64,000 nucleotides of DNA, from positions 64,001-128,000 of the forward strand of contig CBDANC010000012.1 of the NCBI GenBank assembly GCA_965197425.1, written 5' to 3'. This document shows positions 10,431-57,932 of this stretch, in pieces; the first letter of the stretch is position 1, and each line of letters opens with the position of its first letter. Below the pieces are notes generated by a model that saw only the letters and a program-made list of their open reading frames with translations, had not been told where the DNA came from and did no database searches. This DNA comes from Bdellovibrionales bacterium. GTDB lineage: Bacteria; Bdellovibrionota; Bdellovibrionia; Bdellovibrionales; JAUICD01. The position numbers and the translations under genes were made by a program.

Positions 10431-11042
10431 AAGGTCTTCCAAACTAAGGCAAAAACAAGTGGACTTGTTCACTTTTTTTGACTTAGTGGTTGCCCAGCTC
10501 CGGAACACGATGCCAATCCCGTCACTTAAGGTTTTCCAATGAGGCCGATAAAAGTTGATTGGCGTAGCAGATGTGCAAAGCACGAAGCGAAGCAAAGAAA
10601 CTTTTTTGGCCGAGTGGTTGCCCAGCTTTGGACACTGATGCCGATCCCGTCACTTAAGGTCTTCCGAATGAGGCAAATAAGGGAAGCTTTGCTTTCCTTG
10701 GTTCAATTGGCTTACGGGATAAACCTTTATATTATCCAATTGAAATAACCTCCCTGCGGTCGGTTTTTACCGAATGGCTGTTTCCTGGTGGACCTCACAG
10801 CTAATACTGTCACTATAAACTATTTTACATAACCTTAGGTTATTATTGCAAAATTCATCCATCTATGCTACAAAAGCACTCAAGACAATCAGCTCTACTC
10901 GCTTTACTTAAAAACCAAGAGTTACAGGATCGGCATCGTGTTCCAGAGCTGGGCAACCATCAAACTAAAAGATGTCTTGGCTACATTTGGACTTTGTCTT
11001 ACATTTCACCAATCTATCTTTTAGCTTGATTAGGAAGACCTT
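10431..11042. repeat. Family-1 mosaic repeat, locus C: three tandem units plus one inverted unit; contains the 66-bp element at 10698-10763
   Basis: Starts AAGGTCTTCC and ends GGAAGACCTT; GTGGTTGCCCAGC frame repeated. Confidence 0.92.
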
Positions 11043-21865: not shown

Positions 21866-22265
21866 AAGGTCTTCCGAGCGAGGCCAATAAAGTGAACTTG
21901 TTTGCTTTTTTCAATTGGCTCACGGGATAAATTTTTATATTTTCCAATTGAAATAACCTCCCTGCGGTCGGTTTTTTAATAAAGGTGAGGTTAATGAGGC
22001 CAAAAACAAAGTGACTTTGTTGCTTTTTTTTGGCCGAGTGCCTGTTTCACCGAGTGGTTGGCTTCATGCCCAGTACTGGGCAACCACAAGGCTTTGAAAA
22101 TAGGCAAAGCCTCCTTATTTTTTACCTCGTTCGGAAGACCTTATGGAACGGGATCGGAATCAGTGTCCAAAGCTGGGCAACACTGAGTTTAGAAGATGTC
22201 TTGGTTACACTTGGACTTTGTCCTGCATTACACCAATCCATCTTCTAGACTCATTTGAAGACCTT
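21866..22265. repeat. Family-1 mosaic repeat, locus D: head-to-head units; 66-bp element core at 21910-21971
   Basis: AAGGTCTTCC...GAAGACCTT inverted ends; modules shared with C, H, J, O. Confidence 0.92.
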
Positions 22266-29829: not shown

Positions 29830-30039
29830 TGGATCAGCTGCGAGTTCTATCAGGAACTTGAGTTGCTGGATCAGAATCGTGTCCAAAGCTGAACAACCTC
29901 TCAGATAAAAAACCGGCTGCAAAGGAGGTTCATCCAATTGGATAATATAAAGATTTATCCCGTAAGCCAATTGAACCAAAGTGAACAAGTCCACTACGAG
30001 TGGAGTATCCACTTGTTTTAGCCTCGTTTGGAAGACCTT
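29830..30039. repeat. Family-1 mosaic repeat, locus F, carrying a variant of the 66-bp element (29913-29979) and an 18-bp element (29995-30012)
   Basis: Aligns to 51762-51916 with an extra TACGAGTGGAGTATCCAC. Confidence 0.9.
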
Positions 30040-34385: not shown

Positions 34386-34711
34386 AAAAGCAAAGCTTCC
34401 CTTATTTGCCTCGTTCGGAAGACCTTACGGAACAGGATCAGCATCGTGTCCAGAGCTGGGCAACCACTCAGTCAAAAAACCGACCGCAGGGAGGTTATTT
34501 CAATTGGATAATATAAAGATTTATCCCGTGAGCCAATTGAACCAAAGTGAACAAGTCCACTTATTTTTGACTTCGTTCGGAAGACCTTACGGAACAGGAT
34601 CAGCATCGTGTCCAACGCTGGGCAACTATCAAGTTAAAAGATGTCTTGGTTACATTTAGACTTCGTCTTACATTTCACCAATCTATCTTTTAACTTGATT
34701 AGGAAGACCTT
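34386..34711. repeat. Family-1 mosaic repeat, locus H: tandem units; 66-bp element at 34480-34545
   Basis: GGAAGACCTT three times; ACGGAACAGGATCAGCATCGTGTCCA twice. Confidence 0.93.
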
Positions 34712-38363: not shown

Positions 38364-39110
38364 ATGCCAAGGAAAAGAAAAAAGAAAGTTAAAAAGAAAT
38401 CACTAAAACGAAAAACTACAACCAAAAAAAAGACTATAAAAAAAGTCAAAGGAAAACCTACAAAAAAGGTTAAGAAAAAGTCCACTAAAAAGAAAACTAA
38501 GAAAGTAATCAAAAAGAAAATCAAAAAAAAGTCAAAAGTAACTAAAAAGAAAGCTAAAAAAAAACTTAAAAAAAAAGCTAAGAAAGTAACTAAAAAGAAA
38601 ATTAAAAGAAAACCTACAAAAAAGGTTAAGAAAAAGTCCACTAAGAAGAAAATTAAGAAAGTAATCAAAAAGAAAATCAAAAAAAAGTCAAAAGTAACTA
38701 AAAAGAAACCAAAAAAAACAACCACTAAAGCTAAAAGTAGCAAAAAATCTTCAGCAAAGAAGAGGGCAGAAAAAAAAGACACAGCCTCAAAAAAGACTAT
38801 AAAAAAAAATGTAGGGAAAAAGCCTGCTGTAAGATCACTAGAAGAGATCAAAGCAGATGAATCTACCACTATATTTTCCAAAGATATTTTACATGCTGAT
38901 GACCCTAGAGTTAAGGCGCAATATGACCCATACGATGAAGCAGACGACTTTGGTGACAACGAAGATTTTAAAGCTCAAAGCTTTCGCAATGATGATCTTT
39001 TTGATGATGAGGAATATGCACAAGATTTTGAACCTGAATATGAACAACTTGATGAAGAAAAAGATATAATATCAGATTCAGATAATGAAGAAGACGAAGA
39101 TTTTATATAA
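38364..39110 (+). CDS. Histone H1-like Lys-rich protein with acidic C-terminal tail
   Basis: About 150 aa of K/T/V/S/A/P repeats with a duplication at 156-bp spacing (38454 and 38610), then a D/E-rich tail. Confidence 0.7.
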   Translation: MPRKRKKKVKKKSLKRKTTTKKKTIKKVKGKPTKKVKKKSTKKKTKKVIKKKIKKKSKVTKKKAKKKLKKKAKKVTKKKIKRKPTKKVKKKSTKKKIKKVIKKKIKKKSKVTKKKPKKTTTKAKSSKKSSAKKRAEKKDTASKKTIKKNVGKKPAVRSLEEIKADESTTIFSKDILHADDPRVKAQYDPYDEADDFGDNEDFKAQSFRNDDLFDDEEYAQDFEPEYEQLDEEKDIISDSDNEEDEDFI

Positions 39111-39111
39111 C

Positions 39112-39351
39112 AAGGTCCATTAACGAACAGCAAATAATTCTGGCTCCGCCAGATTTTTGCTGTGAGTGACTGTTCCCTGGTGGACCTCACAGCCGATCCA
39201 GTTCCACAAGGTCTTCCGAACGAGGCAAAAACAAGGAGGCTTCGCCTACCTTTTTTGCCAAGTGGTTGCCCAGCTCTGGAACAAGATGCTGATCCCATTA
39301 CTAAAGGTGAGCTTAATGAGGCTATGCCTGTTTTGATCCGGCATTCCGGGA
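39112..39351. repeat. Family-1 mosaic repeat, locus J (left of the four-helix-bundle gene)
   Basis: Three successive AAGGT-starting units with different hairpins. Confidence 0.9.
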
Positions 39352-39720
39352 TCATGTATTTTTCCATAATTGGTATAGAAAGCCTCCTAGCACATCTGCC
39401 TCTTCTATTAGTTCTTTGTGGTCTATGAGATCTAGTATAGCTTGCGTTTCTCTGAGCGAGTCTAAGCTTATTGCATAGAATCTTTTTCTATCTTTTGCTG
39501 TAGGTTGGTTCAATTGGCTCACGGGATAAACCTTTATATTTTCCAATTGAAATAAACTCCCTGCGGTCGTTTTTGCACTTCCCTCCGCAAGGTTAAGTAG
39601 AACACTCAAAGTAGCTCTTTGGAATTGGTTTTTGAGGGGTTCTTTTAGCCAAAGTTTTTTTGATTCTCGATAAAACTCTTTAGCTATTTGGTATGTTTTT
39701 AATTTTTTTGGAAAAATTAA
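39352..39720 (-). CDS. Four-helix-bundle protein (23S rRNA IVP/Avd-like fold) with a 22-aa in-frame insertion; start unclear, possibly a pseudogene
   Basis: LKTYQIAKEFY...LKNQFQRATLSVLLNLAEGSAK[insert]PTAKDRKRFYAISLDSLRETQAILDL. Confidence 0.8.
   Translation of the reverse strand, partial: LIFPKKLKTYQIAKEFYRESKKLWLKEPLKNQFQRATLSVLLNLAEGSAKTTAGSLFQLENIKVYPVSQLNQPTAKDRKRFYAISLDSLRETQAILDLIDHKELIEEADVLGGFLYQLWKNT
39505..39570. mobile_element. 66-bp palindromic element inserted in frame in the four-helix-bundle gene
   Basis: Absent from the paralog at about 54626; the same unit occurs at seven intergenic sites. Confidence 0.92.
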
Positions 39721-39796
39721 AGATACTACCGGTTCCTGGTGGCGGATGCCAGATGCAGATAACGGATCCCTGACTGCCGGGTTGCCTGAATACCTA

Positions 39797-41194
39797 TTAT
39801 AATCTGTTAAGTAATTTTTGGTATATATTTCCAAATCCACCATTACTCATAATTAACACTATATCGTTGGGATTAGCATTTTGTAAAATTATAGAAATTG
39901 CTGCTTCAACATCTTTTGCCCTAAATGCAGAGACAACTCCAGAATTTTTAATATCATTAACTAGCAACTCAGTATCCAACAAACTTGTGTCACTAGGTTT
40001 TGCTATTACATCACAAATAATGCAAAACTGTGAGTCACTAAAGGCTTTGAAATATTCTTTTTGAAACACACTCCCCCTGGATGTAAAAGATCTAGGCTCA
40101 AAAACTGAAATTACCTTTCCCTTACATTGTTGTTGAAAAGCATCAATAGCATGTTTAACAGCTGTGGGGTGATGTGCAAAATCATCAATGATTGTGATCT
40201 TGTTTTTTACTCCTACTACCTCAGCCCTTCTTTTTACACCTTTAAAACTCAAAAAAGCTTTTTTGATGGATTGTGAAGAAAGCCTTAACTTTTTTGATAA
40301 AATATAAACCGCAGTTGCATTTAAAATATTATGCCTACCAAACATTTTTAATTCTATTGTTTCCTTAGAATTATTATGGTTTATGGAAAACTGTACACCT
40401 TTATTTTTTATGCAAATATCCTCAATCACATAATCTGCATTTTCAAATCCATAAGTTATGGCTTTGGTATTTGCCTTTTCCAAAACGCCCAATACATTTT
40501 TATCAGCATAAGCCACAATCAACCCATCTTTTTGAATTTTTAGAAGCGATAAAAATGCACTCTTAACCGCATCAATGTTGGGGTAAATATCTTGGTGATC
40601 AAATTCTATAGAAGTTAAAATTAAATGGTTGGGTTTATAGTGCATAAATTTAGGAATTTTATCAAAAAATGCACTGTCATACTCATCACCCTCTATAACA
40701 AAATATTCAGCTCCAATACTTGTTTTAAGTTGCTTAGAAAAATTATTACACACACCACCTATAAAAAAATCTACATTTTTATTAGAAGAATCCAAAACCC
40801 AAGACATAAGCGAAGCGATAGAAGTCTTGCCATGAGTTCCTGCTATTACAATATTTTTGGTTTCAGACATAAACGATTCACCTACCAGGCTGGCAAAACT
40901 GGTATAAGCAATATTACTGGATAAAAGAGCCCTTGATTCTTCATAGTTTTTTGTCATCACATTTCCAACAACCACAAGATCAGGGTTATGAGATAAATTT
41001 TCTCTTTTAAAACCTTGCATAATATCAATACCAGCATCAGCTAATCTGAGAGACATTGGAGGATATACATCTGTGTCACTACCTGTAACTTTAAAACCCA
41101 AATTTTTAAGTTCACAAGCAAGGCTTGCCATGGCAGTACCACAAACTCCCATGATATGAACCTTTGAACCTTTTTTTAAATCTCGTACATTCAT
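39797..41194 (-). CDS. mpl: Murein peptide ligase Mpl (MurC-like)
   Basis: GVCGTAMASLA, YPPMS, AGTHGKTS, EGDEYDSAFFDK, DDFAHHPTA, FEPRS, MSNGGFG. Confidence 0.9.
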   Translation of the reverse strand: MNVRDLKKGSKVHIMGVCGTAMASLACELKNLGFKVTGSDTDVYPPMSLRLADAGIDIMQGFKRENLSHNPDLVVVGNVMTKNYEESRALLSSNIAYTSFASLVGESFMSETKNIVIAGTHGKTSIASLMSWVLDSSNKNVDFFIGGVCNNFSKQLKTSIGAEYFVIEGDEYDSAFFDKIPKFMHYKPNHLILTSIEFDHQDIYPNIDAVKSAFLSLLKIQKDGLIVAYADKNVLGVLEKANTKAITYGFENADYVIEDICIKNKGVQFSINHNNSKETIELKMFGRHNILNATAVYILSKKLRLSSQSIKKAFLSFKGVKRRAEVVGVKNKITIIDDFAHHPTAVKHAIDAFQQQCKGKVISVFEPRSFTSRGSVFQKEYFKAFSDSQFCIICDVIAKPSDTSLLDTELLVNDIKNSGVVSAFRAKDVEAAISIILQNANPNDIVLIMSNGGFGNIYQKLLNRL

Positions 41195-42183
41195 GTACTA
41201 ATTAACTCAACTATTTTATCGTGAATTTTAGATCTTAAAGGGGCAAATAAAGCTTTTCTTTTTGCTTGAAGCCTGTTGGATAATATCACTACACCTATAT
41301 CGAGCTTGGGATCAAACCACATAGACGTTCCAGTAAAACCAAGATGACCAAAAGCATCTTTCATGTACTTACCACAGCTAGCAGTACCATCTAAAGCCGG
41401 TTTCATAAAACCAAGCCCCCAATCTGCAATATGACTTTTTGTAAAATAAGAAATTTCATTTAAAACACCATCACCCAATAAAGACTCTCTTAAAATAAGC
41501 ATCCACAAAGATACGGCATCAATAGTCCCAAATAAACCAGCATGAGTCGATACACCATCCAAGATATAAGTATTAGCATCATTAACCACACCCTCTGAAA
41601 CCTGACCCCGCAAAGGACACATGCCACAAGGAGCTGAGTTGTCTAAAGGCTTATTTTTTACATTGAAATCAAGGGAGTCTAAATTAAGTTCATCTTTTAC
41701 TTTAAGCCATGATTGATAAGTATCTATTTTATCTAATTTTTCTATGACATCCATTAAAACTAAAAATCCAATATCGCTGTATGTAGTTTTTCCTGGAGTT
41801 GGTTTTTCCAGTGATATGATTTTTTTTATTTGTTCCCAGTTTGAGGTTCTATTGATGATGTCTATTTTTTTGTAAAATTGTTTATTGGACTTAAATCCAG
41901 CAGAGTGTGTTAGGAGTTTACGAGAGGTCAGGTCAAAGTCAAAATCTGTAAATTCATTGATTGGTCTGGTTTCATCAAAAATTGTTGCTTGCCTTAGCAT
42001 CATAAGTCTTGTGGTGGTAAATATAACTTTTGTAAGGCTTGCTAGATCATAGAACTTATAATCTTTGCCATGAGTAATATCTATTTTTTTCTTTCCTCTG
42101 TGATAGGCCTGTATTTTAATACTTGGAGCAGTTAGATTGGCCTCTTGTTCGGTTAAAAAAGTTTCTAATTGTTTTTGTTGCAT
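41191..42183 (-). CDS. Serine hydrolase, beta-lactamase family
   Basis: DLASLTK (SxxK), LLTHSAG, YSDIGF, HAGLFG, GHLGFTGTS. Confidence 0.88.
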   Translation of the reverse strand: MQQKQLETFLTEQEANLTAPSIKIQAYHRGKKKIDITHGKDYKFYDLASLTKVIFTTTRLMMLRQATIFDETRPINEFTDFDFDLTSRKLLTHSAGFKSNKQFYKKIDIINRTSNWEQIKKIISLEKPTPGKTTYSDIGFLVLMDVIEKLDKIDTYQSWLKVKDELNLDSLDFNVKNKPLDNSAPCGMCPLRGQVSEGVVNDANTYILDGVSTHAGLFGTIDAVSLWMLILRESLLGDGVLNEISYFTKSHIADWGLGFMKPALDGTASCGKYMKDAFGHLGFTGTSMWFDPKLDIGVVILSNRLQAKRKALFAPLRSKIHDKIVELIST

Positions 42184-42196
42184 GGTGGATTAGGTT

Positions 42197-43093
42197 TTAC
42201 TTTAAAGATAATGATAAGCTGGGAATCTTTCCGGTTTCAAGTGTTGTTGTGGTATTAAAGGGTAAGATTTCCTGAGTTTTTCTATCATGCCCAACTTTTA
42301 ACCCACCTACAACACAAAAGGGTACTTTTTTAAAAAACAAATCAATTACCTTCTTGATATTTTTATCAGTTTTGTGAATAAAATCACCCAAAATCACTGC
42401 TTTTATATTATCAAAAATCCCGGCATTTAGCATGTGGTATAACATTCTATCTATTTTGTAGGCTTCCTCATTTACATCTTCTAAAAACAAAATTTTAGCT
42501 TTAGTCTTAATCTGCCAAGGAGTACCTATAGATCCTATTAAAGTACATAAATTTCCCCCTACAATTTTACCAGTTATAGATGTTTTTTTCCTACAAGCTG
42601 AATTTATAGGTTTTAAGTTTCTGAAGTTTAAAATTTTTGTTTTCCCCTCTAATATATCCATAAGTTTCGCAAACTCTTCCTTATGTTTTTTCTCACTTAA
42701 TCTTTCCAACATGGGGCTATAGAGTGTTTTAAAGCCATAATTATTAAGTAGTATGTGTATAATTGTAGCGTCACTAGAGCCTATAAATATTTTCTTACTT
42801 GGTTTAGGCCACTTTAAAAAATCCTGCGCCAGATGAATTACGCCGTAACCACCTCTTAATGAAAATATAGCCTTTGAGTTAGAGTAAAGTGCTTTTTTAA
42901 AACCCAAAATACGATTTTGCTTTGAGCTTGCAAATAAAAAATCTTTTTTTAATATATCTTTTTGTACTTTTGGTTTAAAACCTTGAGCTTTTAATAAGTT
43001 TACAGCTTTTGTTAACTTGATTTTGCTACATGAAAAAGACGGGGCAATAATATCTATTAAATCTCCTTTTTTTAGCTTCATATTAAGATCCAT
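42197..43093 (-). CDS. ldcA: LD-carboxypeptidase (S66)
   Basis: RGGYG, IGSSDAT, GGNL, LEDVNE, GH. Confidence 0.9.
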   Translation of the reverse strand: MDLNMKLKKGDLIDIIAPSFSCSKIKLTKAVNLLKAQGFKPKVQKDILKKDFLFASSKQNRILGFKKALYSNSKAIFSLRGGYGVIHLAQDFLKWPKPSKKIFIGSSDATIIHILLNNYGFKTLYSPMLERLSEKKHKEEFAKLMDILEGKTKILNFRNLKPINSACRKKTSITGKIVGGNLCTLIGSIGTPWQIKTKAKILFLEDVNEEAYKIDRMLYHMLNAGIFDNIKAVILGDFIHKTDKNIKKVIDLFFKKVPFCVVGGLKVGHDRKTQEILPFNTTTTLETGKIPSLSLSLK

Positions 43094-43106
43094 CTAGTAA
43101 TTAATT

Positions 43107-44009
43107 TTATGCACTTGGTGGCTTTATCATTTTGTAGAAGTAAAGTTTTCCTCTATCATTTGTCAGATCACCTACATGATTGTTTTTGAAGTTGATATTT
43201 ATGGAACTTTCTATATCCCAATACGGATCTCTGGTTATACAAGCTGACTCACGGCTATTAAAGCAGTACGTATGTTTGTCTCTTGGATGATTTGTTAAGT
43301 AATACCTCGAGGTGAAAGTTATTGATGCACCCGCTGCCCTGTTACTTCCTCCAGCTTGAGATGATTCAAAGTTGAATCTCACAATATTGTCAAATGCTAT
43401 GGACTTTTCAAATCTTCTAATATCAGTGGCAGTAGGGGTTCTGCTCTTAATTTCATAAATAACTTTGCCTGAGTTATCCGACAAACCACTGCGCTCATCA
43501 CCGCCATAGACTATATGTAGCTTTCCTCCTGATTCTATTCTGGGTGCCTCAAAAAATATAGCACTTGCTTCATACTTCATCTCCTCAACACCCCCTAAAG
43601 AACCCGAATCCGGATAGCCGGTTTGTCTGTTAAAAACTGCTATTGCCTCTGGATCTGGAGTAGTAAAACATACATGATCACCACATGAATCACATCCATT
43701 ACAGATATACTCTTTAATAATGGTTGAGGTATCGAGGGTCGCATTGTTCCCTGCGGCTTCAGTGAAATCAGTATCAATGTGGTGTGTGACATTTAGTGAG
43801 TCGGATTGAGACAACATACCTTTAAGATAATAAGTTATCCACATTATTTCTTCTTCTATCGCATTTTTGCGTACAATTGTTTGGAATTGATTTGTGGCGA
43901 ACATATACACTGAGGCCATACCTAGTAGGACCAAACCAATTAATACGGCAGAGATCATGGACTCTATCAGGGTAAATCCAGAATTGTTAGAGCTAGGTTG
44001 TATGCTCAT
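43107..44009 (-). CDS. Prepilin-type N-terminal cleavage/methylation domain protein
   Basis: G|FTLIESMISAVLIGLVLLG. Confidence 0.85.
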   Translation of the reverse strand: MSIQPSSNNSGFTLIESMISAVLIGLVLLGMASVYMFATNQFQTIVRKNAIEEEIMWITYYLKGMLSQSDSLNVTHHIDTDFTEAAGNNATLDTSTIIKEYICNGCDSCGDHVCFTTPDPEAIAVFNRQTGYPDSGSLGGVEEMKYEASAIFFEAPRIESGGKLHIVYGGDERSGLSDNSGKVIYEIKSRTPTATDIRRFEKSIAFDNIVRFNFESSQAGGSNRAAGASITFTSRYYLTNHPRDKHTYCFNSRESACITRDPYWDIESSININFKNNHVGDLTNDRGKLYFYKMIKPPSA

Positions 44010-44024
44010 ATTTAAACCTCTTAT

Positions 44025-45044
44025 TTATGGTTCTCTTGCTAAGTAGGAAGTAGCCGGCAAACCCATTTTGTAAAACAATATCTTACCATAGGTTCCAGCT
44101 CTTACTACCACTTCATCAGGCCCAGAAATTTGCACGATATTCTCATAGTCCTCAAAAATATTATTTCGAAGATTAACCTGCACCTTATGTTGTATGTCTC
44201 TCCAATTTACATTAGTGTCACAAGCTTTTGGATCGTCCGGATCTACTGGGTAACCTGATTTATTTGGGTCATCTGCGCCAGCAACACAATACCTATGGCC
44301 TCTATCCTCACCTGAACCTTTTTTCGAGCTTGTCAAAAAGTACCTAGAGTGAAGGGTAATATCTACTAACATAGAGTCGTCTACACTAGGATCTGGCACT
44401 TTTTGTATATCAATTTCAAGCCCCGCTAATTTAAATCCCAGGGAATATTCTTGGACTTCAACTATAGCATTATCTGAAAGCGACAGGTTACATGCTGTAT
44501 CATGCAGGCTCGGAACTTGTGCTAAAGTAATACTTGCCTTGCCTAAGGAAAATACAATACATAGTACTCCAGGTTTGTTGGCATAAGGCTCTATATAATA
44601 CAGGTAACTTTTATGTTCGTTATCTCCAACATTTGAAGCAGCTTTTTCAATCTCAACACCACTACCAACCACTTTTGCAAAACCAATCATTCTATCTGTT
44701 AAGATGGAAGCTATTTTAACCCTACCATTATCCTTATCATCTTTAGTGTGGCCACAAGTAGCGCCACCATCCCATATAGGACAAGAATAGCTAGAATCGG
44801 ACCCTGCCATATTATAATAATTTATTTTGAGTTTTTTATTCATTGACTGAGTAAACATTGACTGAAGGTGGTAGCCCATCCACTGTAGTTCTTGTTGTGT
44901 TTGACTCTGTAACACTAAAGTAGAAAATTGTCTCATGGTGAAGATAAAAAGTGATCCGATAGTTATGGCAACAATTCCACTTATTGCAGATGCTACCAGT
45001 ATTTCTATTAAAGTCAGACCAGACTGCCTGTTACTTTTACCCAT
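44025..45044 (-). CDS. Prepilin-type N-terminal cleavage/methylation domain protein
   Basis: MGKSNRQSG|LTLIEILVASAISG; start moved to ATG 45044. Confidence 0.85.
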   Translation of the reverse strand: MGKSNRQSGLTLIEILVASAISGIVAITIGSLFIFTMRQFSTLVLQSQTQQELQWMGYHLQSMFTQSMNKKLKINYYNMAGSDSSYSCPIWDGGATCGHTKDDKDNGRVKIASILTDRMIGFAKVVGSGVEIEKAASNVGDNEHKSYLYYIEPYANKPGVLCIVFSLGKASITLAQVPSLHDTACNLSLSDNAIVEVQEYSLGFKLAGLEIDIQKVPDPSVDDSMLVDITLHSRYFLTSSKKGSGEDRGHRYCVAGADDPNKSGYPVDPDDPKACDTNVNWRDIQHKVQVNLRNNIFEDYENIVQISGPDEVVVRAGTYGKILFYKMGLPATSYLAREP

Positions 45045-45184
45045 AACATCTATCCTACCACAGACAAACTTCTCAAAAAAGAGTACATGAAGCACACTGT
45101 GGGATTAATCAGCAAAAGCCACTAGCTAGGTAATCAGTAGGACACGAAAACCTAGCAAACACTAGTTTTAAGGTGTTTATAAAA

Positions 45185-45517
45185 TTATCTGATAATTGCG
45201 GTGTCCTTAATAACACTGCTACCTTGAGGCATTTGCTCTTCAGCATTAACATCAGCCTCATTAGTAGGACTAGCATTGTTATTGTTGGACGCTGATGCAT
45301 CCACAAAACCAGCTTTAGGCATGCACCATACAATCAACTGAGCACGAGAACGAAGAGTCATTTTTTTGTATATGTTAGTAAGATGAAACTTCACAGTCTT
45401 CTCAGTTACAAACAGTCTGCTAGCAACCTCTTTATTCGACAGCCCATTAGTTACTAACTCAGCCACCTCAGCTTCCCTATTTGAAAGCCCTTTTTTTATT
45501 AGGACATCTCTGAGCAT
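45185..45517 (-). CDS. Stand-alone LuxR-type HTH regulator
   Basis: LSNREAEVAELVTNGLSNKEVASRLFVTEKTVKFHLTNIYKK. Confidence 0.9.
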   Translation of the reverse strand: MLRDVLIKKGLSNREAEVAELVTNGLSNKEVASRLFVTEKTVKFHLTNIYKKMTLRSRAQLIVWCMPKAGFVDASASNNNNASPTNEADVNAEEQMPQGSSVIKDTAIIR

Positions 45518-45707
45518 TCTAGTTTCCCCCTTCTTTTAACAAATCAAAAAAAACAACTACTAATAAAAGGATGCACAGAAACCATTCTTGAATCAACATA
45601 AGAAAAACAAATAACTCAAAACTAGACTAAACGAGTCAAGACTAAGGTCAGATATAAACTTTATGAGACTTTGCTTACTTTATAAGAAGTAAAATGAATT
45701 GTGTTTC

Positions 45708-46250
45708 TTAGGATTGAATATAAAAAACATACTTAATACTATATCTGCCTTCAGAAATTTTAGTGTAAACTTCAATTGGGTTTCCAGAGAATTCCAATTT
45801 ATTATCCTGAACAAACTTATCTATTTTTGGATAAACTTTTAAAGGTCCTACAGCAGGAGAGCCTTCAAAATCCACAATTAATGCCCTTTTATTAGGAAAA
45901 TTTTTGGTCTTAAATGGTATATCAATGTTAGGGAGGGTTTCTAGCAGACAACCAGCATGGCTTCTTAGATTGGAAGCTTCAGTTTCTTTAGGATCATCTA
46001 AGTATTCACCAAAAGTAACAATACAAGCTATTGAATTTTCATTAGCCCAATCCTCAACCTTAGCTATGCTCCGATTAATTTTGTGATACTCTCCCTCATG
46101 CTCAGTATAGATAGCATTTATACCACCCCATCTACTATCTACTATCTCAACCTTCTTAAATACACCTATGCTAATAGACACAGTTAAGATCAAGCTAATA
46201 AATACAACAAAAATAAATAACAAATATGCCCAAATAGGTAGCTTCTTCAT
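45708..46250 (-). CDS. Membrane-anchored GyrI-like domain protein
   Basis: N-terminal TM segment; HEGEYHKI, YLDDP, GSPAVGPLKVYP, PIEVY. Confidence 0.7.
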   Translation of the reverse strand: MKKLPIWAYLLFIFVVFISLILTVSISIGVFKKVEIVDSRWGGINAIYTEHEGEYHKINRSIAKVEDWANENSIACIVTFGEYLDDPKETEASNLRSHAGCLLETLPNIDIPFKTKNFPNKRALIVDFEGSPAVGPLKVYPKIDKFVQDNKLEFSGNPIEVYTKISEGRYSIKYVFYIQS

Positions 46251-46317
46251 TTACATAACCTCTTTAAGCGTTATCCCCAGACAATACCTCACTCTCAGCT
46301 CCTTAAGTCAATCTAAT

Positions 46318-46575
46318 AGGTCTTTCCCGGAATGACCGATTGCCCGACTGCCTGATTAGATCTGGGATCTGGCATTCGGGGATCCGTTACCTGCATCCGC
46401 CACCAGGCACCTGTTTGCCAGATTGCCCGATTGCCTGACTGCCAGAATAACCGTGCCGTAGGCACAAACACATGCACCCGTAGGGTGCCGCCTTGCAGGC
46501 GGAGGCATTTAATGGTGGTTGAACATACACCGTGTTCTGTATTTCACCAGCCAAATACCTGCACCCGTAGGGTGC
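46318..46575. repeat. Family-2 mosaic repeat, locus K: 7/8-mer runs, four-helix-leader segment, GCACCC-GTA-GGGTGC hairpins, 24-bp unit at 46487-46510
   Basis: Shares long segments with 61530-61729 and 47478-47590, and in reverse with 39720-39794. Confidence 0.9.
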
Positions 46576-47432
46576 TAGTCTCTTTGTCCGAATCTTAGTT
46601 TTGATCTTAGTATTTCTAGTTGATTGGTATTGTGTGGTAGTAGCATATGGTGAAATTTATTTGAATGTTTGATTAAAATTTTATCTTTGTATGTTAAGTC
46701 AATTTGTCTGTATCCATCTATCATAAAGATAGCTTTTTGTTTTTCTTGTGTTAATTGAATTTGTATTTGGCTGGTATCTGGTATTGTGAGTGGTCTATTT
46801 GTTAGGCTGTGTGGGCAAATAGGTGTAATTACGGTTGCTGGTATTTCTGGGGTTAGTATAGGTCCTCCTGCTGATAGATTATAGGCAGTGGAACCAGTTG
46901 GAGTGGCCACTATTAAGCCATCTGCTTTCAGATCACAAAGCAAGGTATCATCTATTTTGATTGCCATGGATATAAGTCTACTAAAGCTACCTCTTTCAAA
47001 CACAATATCATTTAGAGCCAAAATTTTTCCATTACTGAATTTATCTTTAGAATTTATTAGGCTAATTTCTAGCATTGAGCGTTTGGATACAACAAGTTTA
47101 CCTTCTAATGCCTCAGTGATTACCTTAATTAAATTGTCTGATCTAGCTTGAGTTAAAAAACCTAAGGATCCCATGTTAATACCCAGAACAGGTATTTGAG
47201 TGTGAAATCCAAGCATTCTTACGGCATTTAGGTAGGTACCATCTCCACCTAATACTACAACAAGCTTAAGTTTTAGCAAAATTTTGTCAGTAAGTTTGGC
47301 AGTATCTTTAAGAGGGGTTTGTTCAGGATGATGATAACAAGTACAGCCTTTATTACTAAGCCATTTAACTATTTCAAAGGATTTATCTAAAACCTCAGGT
47401 TTATTGGGTCGGTATACTATCGCAATGTGCAT
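46575..47432 (-). CDS. nadK: NAD kinase
   Basis: LGGDGTYL, GINMGSLGFL, ALND, DGLIVATPTGSTAYNLSAGGP. Confidence 0.95.
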   Translation of the reverse strand: MHIAIVYRPNKPEVLDKSFEIVKWLSNKGCTCYHHPEQTPLKDTAKLTDKILLKLKLVVVLGGDGTYLNAVRMLGFHTQIPVLGINMGSLGFLTQARSDNLIKVITEALEGKLVVSKRSMLEISLINSKDKFSNGKILALNDIVFERGSFSRLISMAIKIDDTLLCDLKADGLIVATPTGSTAYNLSAGGPILTPEIPATVITPICPHSLTNRPLTIPDTSQIQIQLTQEKQKAIFMIDGYRQIDLTYKDKILIKHSNKFHHMLLPHNTNQLEILRSKLRFGQRD

Positions 47433-47477
47433 AAAAATCCACTAATACACCAATTATAAAAACACAACCTTTTTATA

Positions 47478-47590
47478 CCACCGCCCTACAGACGGAAGTA
47501 TTTAATAGTGGTTGCACACACCACATTTCGTATTTCACCAGTTAAACACCCATACCCGTAGGGTGCTAGTCACCGGCACCCGTAGGGTGT
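47478..47590. repeat. Family-2 mosaic repeat, locus L
   Basis: Degenerate 24-bp unit at 47480-47503, GTATTTCACCAG, two CCCGTAGGGTG hairpins. Confidence 0.85.
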
Positions 47591-48423
47591 GGAGGAATGT
47601 AGGATAGGCTTTCAATTAGTTGGAAGGTGAAGTTGCCGCTTGGTGCTTGGTTGGTGATAGCTCCGACACTTACATAGTTTATATCCATTGAGGCAAGTTC
47701 TGAAACTCTATCTGGGCTTATTATACCGGTTACTTCTTTTTCAATTGTAGGCGGAATAATTTTAAGTGCTTTTTGTATATTTTTGTTTGGCATATCCATA
47801 ATTACTCTATCTACTTCAAAATCAATTGCTATTTTAACTTCATCTAGGTTGGTCACTTCTACATGTATAGGTAGGTCTTTATTTTTTGTTACAATCTTCA
47901 AAACTTTTTTTAGGTCGTTATCTAGCGCAACTATGTGATTTTTTTTCACAAAAATTGAGTTACTGCGATTGTTGATAGTATTATGTCCGCCCCCAGCTAC
48001 TACTGCTTTTTTTTCAAGTTCTCTTAAAAGTGGCCTATTTTCGTTGGTATCTAGCAGTTTTATTTTATCTTTGAGTACTTCTTTATAGCATTTGGTAAAA
48101 GTGGTGATACCCGTTAGATGGCTTAAAAAGTTCAGGGCAACTTGACTTGCGAAGAGCATTTTTGTAATTGTACCTTCAATCAGACAGACTGTCTGATCTT
48201 GCAAGACAATATCTCCGTCTTTAAATTTCCAAGAAACTTTGGCATCTGGATCATTATATTTTATGCAACTTTCAAAGACACTACATCCAAATACCACTAG
48301 GTCTCCCAGTGCCTGAACTTTTGCAATTCCTACGACACCATCTAATTTAAGTAAAGTTGCGGTTTTGTCTTCGTAGGCATCCTCTAGATATGCAATTCTT
48401 ATCAAGGATTCTAAGGATTCCAA
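47566..48423 (-). CDS. nadC: Quinolinate phosphoribosyltransferase-like protein with degenerate active site
   Basis: Fold motifs present (ALNFLSHLTGITT, LEKKAVVAGGG, KKNHI, VEV..LDE, YVSVGAIT); several catalytic residues replaced. Confidence 0.8.
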   Translation of the reverse strand: MESLESLIRIAYLEDAYEDKTATLLKLDGVVGIAKVQALGDLVVFGCSVFESCIKYNDPDAKVSWKFKDGDIVLQDQTVCLIEGTITKMLFASQVALNFLSHLTGITTFTKCYKEVLKDKIKLLDTNENRPLLRELEKKAVVAGGGHNTINNRSNSIFVKKNHIVALDNDLKKVLKIVTKNKDLPIHVEVTNLDEVKIAIDFEVDRVIMDMPNKNIQKALKIIPPTIEKEVTGIISPDRVSELASMDINYVSVGAITNQAPSGNFTFQLIESLSYIPPHPTGAGD

Positions 48424-48426
48424 CTA

Positions 48427-49245
48427 TTATTCATCCATTTTTGAATCGGCCATTAGCTTTCTAAGCTCTTCTTTTACATACCTGGTGACAATATTAGGAA
48501 GTAGTTTTCTTACTATATCTCTGGTGGTGTTTTCTAAAATTTCTATTTGTTCATCGCGAGATACTCTAGTGTCTAGGTTAGCATCCAGACCATCATTAAT
48601 ACTGTCTATGGGATTAAAATCAGTACTTGAAAAAATATTACCCCCCTCTAGAGTCTCTGTTTTAGCTTGTTCATAATCAGGGGGTTTTTGGCAGTCTGTG
48701 CTGTTATTCTCAAATCTATATGATTTATCAAGGCTAAAATCAGTCTTTTTTAAGTTTGGATGATTTGAATTTCTAGAACCAATACTTGAAAGCGGTACAT
48801 TAGAAAAGTCATCTATATTTTGGGGTCTACTAAATGTATGTTCAGTGTGTGATTGGTTAGTTGTTTCATGAATGGGATTTTGATCTATGTTAAATAGATT
48901 TTTCATAATTTCTTTTAATGATTTTATATCGAATGGTTTTTTTAGGTTTGCGTCAGCTTTTGATTGTAAAAATCTCGCTTCATCTAGCTTTAAAAAGCTA
49001 CTGGTCATAATTACAACTTTGGTATTTTCTAAAAGTTTTTCTGATTTAATTTTTTCAGAAACTGTATAACCATCTTCATGCTCTAGTAGAACATCTACAA
49101 ATATTATGTTGGGGTTTAACTTGATAGCCTCTTCCAGGATATTGGAAGTTACTTTAGTTACGGTAGTTTTGTAGTCTCTTAACCCCAGCTCTAGTGCTTT
49201 TTTTACACTATCGCTGCTGTCAGCTAAAAGCACACTTAGCGTCAT
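48427..49245 (-). CDS. RomR-like response regulator (REC, linker, helical C-terminal domain)
   Basis: VLLAD, IFVDVLL, LKKPF; the C-terminus LLPNIVTRYVKEELRKLM resembles the RomR C-terminal region as I recall it. Confidence 0.7.
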   Translation of the reverse strand: MTLSVLLADSSDSVKKALELGLRDYKTTVTKVTSNILEEAIKLNPNIIFVDVLLEHEDGYTVSEKIKSEKLLENTKVVIMTSSFLKLDEARFLQSKADANLKKPFDIKSLKEIMKNLFNIDQNPIHETTNQSHTEHTFSRPQNIDDFSNVPLSSIGSRNSNHPNLKKTDFSLDKSYRFENNSTDCQKPPDYEQAKTETLEGGNIFSSTDFNPIDSINDGLDANLDTRVSRDEQIEILENTTRDIVRKLLPNIVTRYVKEELRKLMADSKMDE

Positions 49246-49555
49246 GGCGCTAGTAAACGACCAATTAATCCACTAGTCAAGAAGTAACAACTCTCTATAG
49301 CAAATTGTGCGCCTTACGAACACAAAGTGGCAGTTGGCAAGGTTTTTTGCCGTAAAGAATAGCTGTCTTTGAGGGTTATCTATTACAATAGTGCTTTAGT
49401 TTTAGCGTACGCATTAGTACAGAAGATGTTTCACTTATAGCTCTAACCTCCTACAAGCTACTTGTATATACCAAGTGTATTCATTATTTATATTGATGAA
49501 TATGAGGATAATGTTAAATTAAGAGGACATAGAGATATTAGAAAAAAGGGAGGCC

Positions 49556-50098
49556 ATGAAAGTGTTGGATGTAAAACTTTACCCTGATCCTATTTTGAGA
49601 AGTGTAGCTGAGCCTGTGGGTGATGTGAAAAAGTATAGTTCTTTGGTGGATGATATGTTAAAAACTATGTACAATGCGAATGGTATTGGCCTTGCTGCCG
49701 TTCAGGTTGGCGAGCTTGTTAGACTTGTAGTGATTGATATATCTGTTTCTGACAAGTATAAGGATCAGCACCAGAAGCTTACTGATTTGGAACGGAGCGT
49801 GAAGTATCCTCTTGTTTTATTTAATCCTGAAATTGTATCCAAAGAGGGTGATATTTGCTTTGAAGAAGGTTGTCTTAGTATTCCTGGTTATACTGGAGAG
49901 GTTCCAAGATCCCGGCATATTAAGGTATCTTTTCAGGATAGAGATGGTAAGTCTGTGACTACGGAGACTGATGGTTTATTGTCTGTTTGTATTCAGCATG
50001 AGATCGATCATTTAAATGGAGTTTTATTTTTAGATAAGATGGATAAAGAAAAATCCAAAGCTATTAAGGCACATATTAAAGAACATGGATTTAGCTAG
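49556..50098 (+). CDS. def: Peptide deformylase
   Basis: GIGLAAVQVG, EGCLSIP, QHEIDHLNG. Confidence 0.96.
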   Translation: MKVLDVKLYPDPILRSVAEPVGDVKKYSSLVDDMLKTMYNANGIGLAAVQVGELVRLVVIDISVSDKYKDQHQKLTDLERSVKYPLVLFNPEIVSKEGDICFEEGCLSIPGYTGEVPRSRHIKVSFQDRDGKSVTTETDGLLSVCIQHEIDHLNGVLFLDKMDKEKSKAIKAHIKEHGFS

Positions 50099-51020
50099 GG
50101 TTTTATTTTTAGCAACACCTAAATTTGCTATTCCTACTTTAGAGGGTTTGTTGTCCAATCCTTCCATTGAGATTGTTGGTGTAGTAACTCCTCCTGATAA
50201 AAAATCAGGAAGAAATTTAAAAACCAATGAATCTGCTTTGAGTTATTTTGCAAAGCAAATGAGGCTTCCTTTATTTAAGTTTGAGTCTGTAAACAGTGCA
50301 GATGCTTTGAAAGTGTTAAAACCTCTTAATGTGGATTGTGTTTTGGTGATTGCATTTGGACAGATATTATCTGTGGATTTTTTAAAATCTTTTCCAATGG
50401 CAATAAATATGCATGCTAGTTTACTTCCAAAGTTAAGAGGCGCTTCTCCTATACAAAGAGCACTTATGAATGGTGATAGAGTTACTGGCATAACAATGCA
50501 ATTTATGCATGAAAAAGTAGATAGGGGCGATATTATTGCAAGCTTTGAGCAGGTTATTGATGATGATATGACTTATGTTGATCTTTGTAAAAAGTTGGAA
50601 GTTTTAACAAGTAAGTTGGCACAAAAATATTTGTTAAAAGTGATACGTGGTGAAGTGAGTGCTGTTAAACAAGATGATACTTTGGCTACTTATGCTACCA
50701 AGATAAAAAAGGACGAGGGATTTATTGATTTTAATGCTAAGGCTTCAGATATTTATAATTTGTATAGAGGTTTATATTCGTGGCCTGGGGTTTATTTCAA
50801 AAAAGGTGGTTTGATTAAAATAACTAAGATGAAGTTGGGCAGTTTATCGGCTAAAAAGTCTGGGATGGTGCTTGGTATTACTAAAAATCATATGACAGTA
50901 TCTTGCAAAGAGGGGTCTGTGGATATTTTGAGGCTTAAGCCTGAGTCGAGAAAGGACATGAGTGCTTATGAGTTTGCCAATGGTTTTAAGGTTGAGGTTG
51001 GTTGTATTATAAATGATTAA
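50085..51020 (+). CDS. fmt: Methionyl-tRNA formyltransferase
   Basis: VVTPPDKKSGR, AFGQIL, INMHASLLPKLRGASPIQ. Confidence 0.95.
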   Translation: MDLARVLFLATPKFAIPTLEGLLSNPSIEIVGVVTPPDKKSGRNLKTNESALSYFAKQMRLPLFKFESVNSADALKVLKPLNVDCVLVIAFGQILSVDFLKSFPMAINMHASLLPKLRGASPIQRALMNGDRVTGITMQFMHEKVDRGDIIASFEQVIDDDMTYVDLCKKLEVLTSKLAQKYLLKVIRGEVSAVKQDDTLATYATKIKKDEGFIDFNAKASDIYNLYRGLYSWPGVYFKKGGLIKITKMKLGSLSAKKSGMVLGITKNHMTVSCKEGSVDILRLKPESRKDMSAYEFANGFKVEVGCIIND

Positions 51021-51672
51021 AGTATCTGCTAGTGTATTGGCATTTGATCTTGCAAATATAGATTCTGAGATAAAGAAGCTAGAGGATACTGGTGTTGATT
51101 ACATTCATGTAGATGTCATGGATGGTAAATTTGTCCCAAATACCACTGATATGGATCCCGATTTTGTCTCGTCTATTAAGTCTATTACTAGTTTACCTTT
51201 AGATGTGCATTTGATGGTAGAAGATCCACAAAGTGTTATCCGCAAGTTTGTGAATGCTGGTGCGGACATGATAACTTTTCATGTTGAAGCGGTTAAGGAT
51301 GTAAAGAAAGTTATAGAGAATATTAAGTCATTTGATGTTTTAGCTGGCTTAGCTTTTAAACCCGGTATTGATTTAGAAGTTATTTATCCTTTTCTACCTG
51401 CTCTTGATCTTGTGTTAGTTATGACAGTAATGCCTGGTTTTGCTGGTCAGGATTTTATGTGGGATGAGGCTTATAATATTTCTAAGCTCAAAAATTTTGT
51501 AAAAAATAAAGATCTAGATACCATAATAAGTGTGGATGGTGGAATAAATGATAGAACAAAAGATATATGCATTAAAAATGGGGCTGATATTTTGGTATCT
51601 GGAAGTTTTATTGCACAAAATTGTTCCTCCGATGCAATTGCCACTTTAAAAGAGATACCCAATGGACCTTGA
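51013..51672 (+). CDS. rpe: Ribulose-phosphate 3-epimerase
   Basis: IHVDVMDGKFVPN, DVHLMV, MTVMPGFAGQ, VDGGIN. Confidence 0.95.
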   Translation: MIKVSASVLAFDLANIDSEIKKLEDTGVDYIHVDVMDGKFVPNTTDMDPDFVSSIKSITSLPLDVHLMVEDPQSVIRKFVNAGADMITFHVEAVKDVKKVIENIKSFDVLAGLAFKPGIDLEVIYPFLPALDLVLVMTVMPGFAGQDFMWDEAYNISKLKNFVKNKDLDTIISVDGGINDRTKDICIKNGADILVSGSFIAQNCSSDAIATLKEIPNGP

Positions 51673-51699
51673 AGCAACTTTTATCGTATTATACCTACA

Positions 51700-51916
51700 A
51701 AGCTGGGCAACTCTGATTTCGCCTAGGCAACTTTCAGTTCTTGCTGAGACCTTGTGTGGAAGGATCAGCATCTTGTTCTAGTGTTGGGCAACCACTCAGT
51801 CAAAAAACCGACCGCAGGGAGGTTATTTCAATTGGATAATATAAAGATTTATCCCATGAGCCAATTGAACCAAAGTGAACAAGTCCACTTGTTTTTGACT
51901 TCGTTCGGAAGACCTT
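51700..51916. repeat. Family-1 mosaic repeat, locus M (66-bp element at 51808-51873)
   Basis: Near-identical to 34436-34588. Confidence 0.93.
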
Positions 51917-51940
51917 GAGCTTGACAAGGTAATTTTATGT

Positions 51941-53950: not shown

Positions 53951-54500
53951 AACAAATAAGGGCCTTGGGGTTAATAAGGAGATAACCTCTGAAGTTTTAA
54001 GGGTTATTGGTCCAGATGGAACGATGTTTGGAGTAATGAAAAAGCAAGATGCAATTAATCGTGCAGAAGATTTAGGTCTTGATTTGATAGAGGTTGCACC
54101 CAACAGTGATCCTCCCACTTGCAAGATAATGAATTATGGCAAGTATAAATATGAGCAAAAAAAGAAAAATCAGGAGGCAAAAAAAAGACAAACTATAATT
54201 ACTGTAAAGGAGATAAAGTTAAGGCCTAGAACAGATACTGGCGATTTGCAAACAAAGTTAAAACATACAAGAAAATTTTTAGAGCAAGGGAACAAAGCAA
54301 AAATTACTATTAGGTTTAGAGGCCGTGAGATGGCACATCAGGAAATTGGAAAAGACCAATTAGATAAAGTGATGAAAGCTTTAGAGGATATATCTGTTGT
54401 AGAGGTTGAGCCAAAAATGGAAGGAAGACAAATGTTTGCTATGCTTGCACCTAATCCTACTGTTTTAAAAGAGTTAGCCAAAAAGAAATCAAAAGCATAA
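53931..54500 (+). CDS. infC: Translation initiation factor IF-3, probable non-canonical ATC start
   Basis: The frame is open 31 codons upstream of ATG 54024 (..VNKEITSEVLRVIGPDG), back to ATC 53931 after AGGAGG; LDLIEVAP, YGKYKYE, FRGREMAH. Confidence 0.9.
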   Translation: MRLRRNRTNKGLGVNKEITSEVLRVIGPDGTMFGVMKKQDAINRAEDLGLDLIEVAPNSDPPTCKIMNYGKYKYEQKKKNQEAKKRQTIITVKEIKLRPRTDTGDLQTKLKHTRKFLEQGNKAKITIRFRGREMAHQEIGKDQLDKVMKALEDISVVEVEPKMEGRQMFAMLAPNPTVLKELAKKKSKA

Positions 54501-54780
54501 AGGTCTTCCGAGTACATCTGCTTCTTCTATAGGGTTTTTGTGGTCTATGAGATCTAATATAGCTTGTGTTTCTCTTAGTGAACCTAAGCTTATTGCATAG
54601 AATCTTTTTCTATCTTTTGCTGTTGGCTTTGCACTTCCTTCTGCAATATTTAGTAGAATGCTCAAAGTAGCTCTTTGAAATTGATTTTTGAGCGGTTCTC
54701 TCAGATAAAGGTTTTTTGAGTTTTTATAAAACTCTTTAGCCAGTTGGTATGTTTTTAATTTTTTTGGAAAAATTAGGGAT
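54499..54780 (-). pseudogene. Second four-helix-bundle gene, 3'-truncated by a family-1 end
   Basis: Closely matches 39352-39720 without the 66-bp insert; after ADVLG the sequence switches to GGAAGACCTT. Confidence 0.75.
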
Positions 54781-54811
54781 ATGACAGATTTCTGTTGCCG
54801 GATCACAGATA

Positions 54812-57466: not shown

Positions 57467-57932
57467 AAGGTTTTCCTAACGAGACCAATAAGGCGAACTT
57501 CGTTTGCCTTTTTTCAATTGGTTCACGGGATAAATCTTTATATTATCCAATTGGATGAACCTCCTTTGCAGTCGGTTTTTTCAATAAAGGTGAGGTTAGC
57601 GAACAGCAAATAAATCTGGCTTTGCCAGTTTTTTGCTGTGAGTGCCTGTTTCACCGAGTGGTTGCCCAGCTCTACACATGTCATCAAACTCATCTCCACT
57701 GAGGGTATCGTAATATGATTTGCTTTAAAACTCAAGCACTGACCCCCACTTGCCAACAAAGTGAACTTGTTTGCTTGGTTCAATTGGCTCACGGGATAAA
57801 TCTTTATATTATCCAATTGAAATAACCTCCCTGCGGTCGGTTTTTGGCCGAGTGACTGTTTCCAGGTCTAACTAAGGCTAGGGAACTTTCATATTTCACC
57901 AATTCATCTTTTAGCTTGATTAGGAAGACCTT
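57467..57932. repeat. Family-1 mosaic repeat, locus O (66-bp element at 57775-57840, variant core at 57513-57575)
   Basis: AAGGTTTTCC...GGAAGACCTT inverted ends; modules shared with A, D, J. Confidence 0.92.

Follow-up and report, generated by a model that had tools for sequence, protein, structure and literature searches.

Among the systems described to date, those closest to the element reported here are the REPIN and BIME units associated with RAYT proteins. For REPINs, one study (PMC3337134) gives a single excision read, which runs from 3' foot to 3' foot of the palindromes and leaves a long palindromic singlet behind. For BIMEs, a model set out in PMC3333891 envisages the excision of single-stranded circles at dinucleotide sites, followed by integration and by the capture of gene fragments, whilst the head of a REP is defined by the tetranucleotide GTAG (PMC2817692).

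Here we analyse a 66-bp repeat in a window of 64,000 nucleotides (the whole stretch of DNA under study) from the genome of a Bdellovibrionales bacterium (G000; 1.6 Mb in 15 contigs, 99.4% complete). We find it to be a real, lineage-specific and recently active mobile hairpin unit, which sits almost only in two kinds of multicopy host: a larger REP-like repeat and a family of four-helix-bundle (PF05635) genes.

Results

Copies and boundaries of the element

A pattern catalogue of the genome contains 52 two-ended copies and two with a left end only. Lengths of the two-ended copies are 66 nt (37 copies), 67 nt (10), 100 nt (3), 134 nt (1) and 65 nt (1); the 37 66-mers comprise 29 distinct sequences, with a mean difference of 5.6 nt. 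All eight copies that an earlier note on this DNA had listed for the window are present, with bounds that move by 2 nt:

10700..10765, forward strand: 66-bp copy, base of host hairpin H3
21908..21973, forward strand: 66-bp copy, left end TTTT, host hairpin H5
29911..29977, reverse strand: 67-bp copy of C type, host hairpin H1
34478..34543, reverse strand: 66-bp copy, host hairpin H1
39507..39572, forward strand: the element under study, GGTT...GTTT after re-bounding; a private allele, also found in two other four-helix-bundle paralogs
51806..51871, reverse strand: 66-bp copy, host hairpin H1
57511..57577, forward strand: 67-bp copy of C type, left end TTTT, host hairpin H5
57777..57842, forward strand: 66-bp copy in host hairpin H5, identical in sequence to the one at 34478 (H1)

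At the left junction the dinucleotide is TT in 48 copies, AT in two and CT in two, and at the right junction it is TT in 52 of 52. The AT form is seen only after host hairpin H4, and empty copies of this hairpin class also read AT (3 of 9 genuine empties; 11 listed); one CT copy is a gene copy whose three nearest empty paralogs all have AAG at that codon, and the second has no matching empty type. Set against an invariant TT on the right, AT and CT on the left mean that the first two bases of the bounds originally drawn (39505..39570) are target and not duplicated, such that the unit is 39507-39572, of the GGTT...GGTT type, in a target NT|TT with one T assignable to either side. In four of the 52 copies the left dinucleotide (AT or CT) differs from the right one (TT); these rule out a target duplication of 2 bp or more (with a 1-nt T ambiguity), and the earlier claim that there is none is thereby borne out.

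The left four bases are GGTT in 38 copies, TTTT in eight, GATT in three and others in three; at the right end the last four read GGTT 49 times and GTTT three times. Copies first taken to be '5'-shortened' are in fact full length, with TTTT replacing GGTT (8/52). The rule that every copy is followed by at least four T holds for 8/8 in the window but for only 47/52 genome-wide. As boundary evidence, the pair of filled and empty paralogs from which the original bounds were argued is uninformative, since it leaves one C/T mismatch under either boundary, and the CTTT of the unhit paralog does not explain why it was spared: 6 of 14 empty paralogs have AAA at that codon, and CT sites are used. A comparison of flanks over all genomic copies, as the note had advised, does return a fixed TT on the right, but only NT is common on the left, and a T-run is not a sufficient target.

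Anatomy and distribution

Within the copy under study, two parts can be told apart:

39507..39559, forward strand: core, a 25-nt loop between imperfect inverted arms TTCAATTGG / CCAATTGAA
39556..39572, forward strand: tail, a small hairpin, usually AACC-N11-GGTT, that ends at the right junction

The tail comes in two types, B and C. Copies of 100 and 134 nt are arrays whose joins lie at internal CCAATTG repeats. In older relatives of the element the arms persist while loops and tails differ, and two such relatives have the core linking a pair of inverted host hairpins. Hairpins near both ends are predicted for core and tail, but they are only marginally stable against shuffled sequences (z -0.7 to -2.4; -0.7 to -2.2 for the element alone), the present tail makes only a weak hairpin, and a single compensatory change was seen, in an older copy. 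Rfam returned no match to the element, and in the window matched only three tRNAs. An older, longer form of the core, with pairing rich in G.T, lies in the 23S-5S rRNA spacer (G000:C13:123900-124070), between two copies of an 8-nt direct repeat matching the start of 5S.

The 66-mer was not found in 40 relatives of G000, and its exact pattern has no match in collections of genome contigs and viral contigs; five metagenome matches were rejected as chance, in unrelated sequence. The peptide encoded by the insert matches only three proteins, all of G000. The reading of the element as a small, non-coding, precisely inserted mobile unit is supported.

Host repeat and choice of target

Of the 52 copies, 46 lie in the larger REP-like repeat, five in PF05635 genes and one at the end of another repeat-like stretch. 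The host repeat, of which the genome has ~176 left arms, consists of left arm, A-run, variable hairpin, T-run and right arm, as in this empty example:

10431..10500, forward strand: empty host repeat (left arm, A-run, hairpin, T-run, right arm)

The copies nearly always lie 2-3 nt 3' of the hairpin, with two cases in which the hairpin is missing. A short T-run had been proposed as the target motif, and this reading fails: 51 of 52 copies lie in the two multicopy hosts and one outside them, despite the 4,253 T/A runs of at least 4 nt that unique non-coding DNA contains. The T-run is a property of the host repeat and not a sufficient target. None of 47 host copies is in reverse orientation (there is no inverted right arm upstream); 23 of the 47 have the right arm downstream, and two have an inverted left arm there. 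Relative to the G-rich strand, orientation is 24 against 22 among 46 copies, with no bias seen (by a crude local GC skew on a fragmented assembly).

Identical 66-mers lie behind different hairpins, one sequence in H1, H2 (twice) and H6, and another in H5 and H1 (twice), and allele and host hairpin show no association (30 copies, permutation p 0.24-0.36), from which it follows that the unit moves apart from its left flank. One and the same nucleotide is joined across six hairpin classes plus the genes; the left flanks, at least seven of them unrelated, have only NT in common. At the host-repeat sites, insertion into a singlet and excision from a doublet fit alike; the gene sites are insertions.

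A GTAG/GTGG head is absent at the foot of the element's hairpins; one class of host hairpin reads GTAGGC-NNN-GCC on the reverse strand (46 copies), and the other classes do not. A separate palindrome family, of the type GCACCC-GTA-GGGTGC, has ~11 copies in the genome (46465-46590, 47543-47600 and 61683-61742 in the window) and may be a REP relic.

Insertion into four-helix-bundle genes

Three features of the window bear on the gene sites:

39352..39708, reverse strand: host gene, a PF05635 four-helix-bundle ORF that has lost by deletion the ATG and Shine-Dalgarno hairpin seen in most paralogs, and is possibly not translated
39492..39506, forward strand: left target flank in the gene, which resembles the element's right end
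54489..54806, reverse strand: empty paralog, 81% identical and sister to the filled gene in the tree

That the insertion adds codons in frame is confirmed, 22 of them in a PF05635 gene, as is the uninterrupted paralog at 54489-54806. In all, five of 19 paralogs are filled, at one and the same nucleotide, which falls in the loop between helices 2 and 3 (by alignment to 2GSC). Among 120 homologs examined, none of the 105 outside ones carries an insert in this loop, and no longer loop was seen in the 48 parsable of 80 genomic loci; the empty state is thus ancestral. In a paralog tree built without the insert columns five changes are needed, three of them forced by strong branches, and a single clade for the five filled genes is rejected (AU p=2.4e-5). 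The element has therefore arrived at this codon on at least three separate occasions.

Three of the filled genes are 80-83% identical to one another (17-20% divergence), and yet carry the 66-mer with no difference at all, in an allele seen in none of the 49 other copies. The test does not reject a single clade for these three (AU p 0.24); saying this, 66 identical bases are not expected from descent at such a divergence between the genes (0.82^66 = 2e-6). Copying is recent and precise, as attested by an identical private allele in genes 80-83% alike. Outside the insert, the three stay identical for ~11 nt to one side and for 4-7 nt to the other. Two further filled genes have other alleles at the same nucleotide.

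In a structure model of the paralog on contig C6 the four helices are kept, with a pLDDT of 85 overall and low confidence for residues 49-66. Two other filled genes retain their ATG and leader. The reading frame is open in 5/5 gene copies, all of 66 nt, as against 30/32 intergenic copies; selection for an open frame was considered and set aside, there being no evidence for it when most intergenic copies are open too.

Some further observations concern the paralogs themselves. Both of those in the window, and one on C13, lost ATG and Shine-Dalgarno hairpin through one common deletion (39708-39790 and 54760-54800 in the window); the paralog at 54.5 kb also ends early, and heptamer repeats flank the paralogs. 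One filled paralog has a second insertion of ~64 bp, a variant of the host repeat, ~20 nt from the 66-mer (G000:C13:84828-84891), and the end of this insertion is also target-like.

A gene-like right end

On the minus (gene) strand the C tail translates as (K)PTAKE and the B tail as (K)PTA; both resemble the host gene beyond the insertion site, where KPTAKD is the commonest sequence in the family (68/120). Compared with the nearest paralog, the C tail differs at third codon positions only. By base composition, the chance of PTAK[DE] in frame is 1.7e-7 (computed after the match had been noticed). The likeness of tail to gene ends where the core's arm starts. This suggests that the tail was captured from, or shaped by, such a four-helix-bundle gene.

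The filled left junction of four genes equals the predicted circle joint, right end to left end, at 17/18 nt, and the circle-joint pattern has genome matches only at the left junctions of those four filled genes. One crossover between a circle and a gene, inside the likeness, would yield precisely the filled allele; were the donor linear and from a host repeat, there would be no homology on the left. Likeness as the only rule has against it ~100 unfilled sites that match the C tail at 11/14 or better, and the right end finds better matches elsewhere in the genome than at the gene site; most of these ~100 sites would lie in genes, from which an insertion may have been purged.

Search for a mobilising enzyme

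Profile searches were made family by family, with IS256, ISL3, IS1595 and others lying outside them, and the absence of a nuclease gene was judged on the 99.4% complete, 15-contig assembly. A search for tnpA or RAYT genes, suggested earlier, yielded none in G000: Y1_Tnp (PF01797) has no match there (control, 6/14), tblastn with the Y1 proteins of relatives found no remnant, and RAYT (NF047646) has none in G000, G001, G002 or G004 and is present in 6 of 13 genomes searched. For Y2_Tnp (PF04986) G000 again gave 0 matches, but so did the control (0/14). No match was obtained in G000 for rve, the TnpB zinc ribbon or DDE_3, and a GIY-YIG search of it found only a 612-aa ORF of UvrC size. As for the proposal of a non-autonomous HUH-type element, precise insertion, the lack of a duplication and predicted hairpins near the ends do fit HUH-like nicking and joining, but no HUH partner was found in G000 and no lagging-strand bias was seen by the crude local GC skew.

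Several other classes were tried and rejected: IS110/IS1111, with no DEDD recombinase in G000 (PF02371: 0 matches; control, 6/14); a retro-element or DGR, with no reverse transcriptase (PF00078, RVT_1: 0 matches; control, 3/14); and a classical DDE MITE as judged by its ends, which are direct (GGTT...GGTT) and unrelated to IS1634, with no rve or DDE_3. The arms of an integron attC site follow the consensus RYYYAAC...GTTRRRY. An integron cassette was likewise rejected, since tyrosine recombinases (PF00589) have no match in G000 (no XerC/D was found; control, 14/14) and the element's arms are, by inspection, in inverse order.

Excision or circle joints were sought among the 15 joints listed of 42, from contigs of four runs over 38500-54480 of the window and so covering two of the eight copies, and none was found there. 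One joint in run X5, a weak one with a side of 26 nt, starts at 39506; run X1 is probably the source sample, and hence not independent.

The genome does hold other elements and genes of note. An intact-looking IS1634-type element with a 548-aa transposase (G000:C11:5734-7682; derivative at C11:38203-38690) lies between exact 877-bp direct repeats in which an ankyrin gene is duplicated; as a candidate mover it was rejected, because its ends share nothing with the 66-mer and it has a deletion derivative of its own. A solo serine recombinase of 239 aa (C12:4669-5388) lies upstream of dcd, is syntenic in G001 and has eight matches in G002. A patatin-like gene followed by a nucleotidyltransferase-like gene (G000:C13:119022-120925) is, by inspection, a CBASS-type pair. 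Contigs C2, C3, C5 and C8 consist largely of long AT-rich repeats unlike the rest and may be contamination.

Related genomes

G001 is of the same genus, with a median protein identity of 70% (400 kb of 1.6 Mb compared), and carries a dense family of repeats whose arms are those of the G000 host repeat (loci L040-L059); no PF05635 gene, RAYT, DDE_Tnp_1 or 66-mer was found in it. Both G001 and G004 are dense in repeats though no RAYT was found in either. PF05635 matches are interrupted by repeats of the lineage's own in at least 5/14 cases in G002 and at least 5/19 in G004 (16 loci examined, mostly chosen for truncated matches), at another fixed site ~45 nt downstream of that used by the 66-mer. 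The genes concerned, at L093, L094, L095, L092 and L073 in G004 and at L099, L030, L098, L100 and L101 in G002, are interrupted near the codons SLGSL by a repeat of ~150 bp with one end fixed and a variable stretch of 15-20 nt at the other, in three paralog types in G004.

Discussion

Synthesis and alternatives

We tentatively propose a model, to which we would give somewhat less than an even chance, in which an HUH/RAYT-like nick-and-join enzyme acts in trans, and a circle leaves one repeat to rejoin at another repeat or at the gene site. In this scheme, the unit would leave its host repeat as a single-stranded circle through two same-strand cuts at T|T, and the circle would rejoin at another repeat or at a gene site that resembles its own right end; this end would once have been captured from a four-helix-bundle gene, such that a gene codon would now serve as a homing site. 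The lack of a duplication, the fixed TT at the right end, the single orientation and the independence of allele and hairpin all count in favour of excision and rejoining, and it is from such features that we infer the circle, the chemistry, the class of enzyme and the capture of the right end. Against nicking and joining we count the missing Y1/RAYT gene, strand bias and GTAG head, the lack of a joint among those listed, the marginal hairpins, and the fact that all targets but one belong to multicopy families. Identical copies point to recent activity, which is awkward when no enzyme was found.

The private allele in three genes points to homology-guided copying from gene to gene, not to free transposition, and leads to the strongest competitor, which we nonetheless hold to be unlikely: host repair alone, without a dedicated enzyme, through template switching at hairpin feet/T-runs together with short-patch gene conversion among ~170 host repeats and 19 gene paralogs, the 15-nt likeness seeding the first gene insertions. 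Such a process would fit with the absence of a matching transposase from the families searched, with 51/52 copies in multicopy hosts, with the confinement of the private allele to three genes, with arrays of 100 and 134 nt joined at internal CCAATTG repeats, and with the four-helix-bundle genes of G002 and G004, repeatedly hit at one site by other repeats. Saying this, for recombination the tracts of identity among identical copies (~11 and 4-7 nt) are short; at least seven left flanks, unrelated but for NT, are joined to the unit at one and the same nucleotide, the allele is independent of the flanking hairpin, and other alleles occur at that nucleotide in two more genes. Recurrence at one codon in genes 73-83% alike, with a shared flank down to 11+4 nt, amounts to very tight homing, be it enzymatic or by repair.

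A different source of mobility might be the genes themselves, the 66-mer being a parasite of a four-helix-bundle cassette in which an Avd-like protein, or whatever spreads the cassette, gives or guides its movement and the gene-derived end is the recognition site. We regard this as improbable: we know of no catalytic motif for the family, there is no reverse transcriptase in G000, G001 has a homologous host repeat without the genes, and insertions may simply survive in dispensable multicopy genes. What speaks for it is an end that reads KPTAKE and differs from the gene at third positions only, together with a similar occupancy of the two targets (5/19 gene sites, 46/~176 left arms), the piling of repeats into these genes in three genomes, and the joint absence of genes and 66-mer from G001, although this co-occurrence is one genome pair. 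PF05635 also resembles Avd (PMC10053308). If a four-helix-bundle protein does take part, it would be a first function for a widespread family of unknown role.

Quite improbable, in our estimate, is integration of a double-stranded circle by the solo serine recombinase (C12:4669-5388) through a TT core, the unit then being 64 bp plus a 2-bp overlap. This is the only site-specific recombinase found in G000, it is syntenic in G001 and multicopy in G002, and both junctions are TT in 48/52 copies; however, the odd base is on the left in 4/4 mismatched cases and never on the right, no inverted half-sites surround the joint, neither a 66-mer nor a host repeat lies at the ends of its gene, and G001 has the enzyme without the element. 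Least probable is a classical DDE MITE, in which a ~50-bp core with terminal inverted repeats would once have entered a gene, duplicating 15-16 bp, with later copies moved by the resident IS1634. In its favour, the core has inverted arms, near-direct repeats flank it in the genes and the IS1634-type element makes long duplications (877 bp); on the other side, the ends of IS1634 are unrelated to the element, IS1634 has its own deletion derivative, duplication is seen in 0/46 host-repeat copies, and the scheme would explain the birth of the tail at most and not the spread, being contradicted for present-day movement.

For the question of how short palindromic repeats spread in genomes that lack a RAYT or any matching transposase, the element offers a small and exact test case, with defined ends, a predicted circle joint, two classes of target and few candidate proteins in a 1.6-Mb genome. 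The boldest reading, a long shot in our judgement, is of a homing system not described before, in which a 66-bp element with five captured gene codons as its own end would insert precisely, in frame and repeatedly into one loop of diverged paralogs and into a REP-like repeat, moved by an agent outside the known transposase families, possibly an Avd-like four-helix-bundle protein, whose genes also serve as landing sites for repeats in two related genomes. Our literature search, made largely outside the subscription journals, found no account of the element or of insertions into four-helix-bundle genes. Nor did it find recurrence at one codon of one gene family by a repeat with a target-like end; in-frame repeats in genes are already known (PMC3184786).

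Comparison with known systems

The host gene belongs to the PF05635/S23p family of intervening-sequence genes, with heptamer repeats beside it (PDB 2GSC; PMC4990558); here it is the target, not the element. Streptococcal BOX, Rickettsia RPE and Bordetella BRE, as reviewed in PMC3184786, resemble the element in their modular repeats, variable number of modules and in-frame insertion into genes, but they hit many unrelated genes, whereas the 66-mer, with its target-like end, returns to a single codon in a single paralog family.

Insertion sequences that target REPs include IS621, ISPpu10 and IS1397. Elements of this kind, mentioned in PMC3333891, share with the 66-mer insertion at a fixed position of a host repeat, and are unlike it in that no IS110 or rve-type transposase was found here and the unit is only 66 bp. 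Non-autonomous derivatives of IS200/IS605 (for the 'peel and paste' movement of IS608, see PMC5027513) have in common with it the absence of a duplication, hairpins near the ends (in the 66-mer only predicted) and a fixed orientation to the target; in contrast, there is no fixed target of 4-5 nt here, the hosts are two and multicopy, and no TnpA was found. The same paper gives a lagging-strand bias for IS608, as opposed to none seen here (24 vs 22, by crude local GC skew on a fragmented assembly).

The nearest likeness is to the REPIN/BIME-RAYT systems. As there (PMC3337134, PMC3333891, PMC2817692), we find intergenic hairpin repeats, modular arrays, putative cut sites defined at the level of a dinucleotide and a probable capture of gene fragments, and the element begins at the 3' foot of one hairpin and ends at that of the next, the geometry of the REPIN excision read and of the BIME model. 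Unlike them, it has no rayt gene that we could find in the genome and no GTAG head, which is why we do not class it as a REPIN/BIME member; the cut would be T|T here and is C|T there, and the element re-inserts in frame at one codon of a gene family. By analogy, then, it works like the excisable middle of a REPIN/BIME doublet, with membership of the HUH class no more than a possibility, and it illustrates how a middle segment of REPIN-like kind can move out of its repeat and extend a protein by a peptide.
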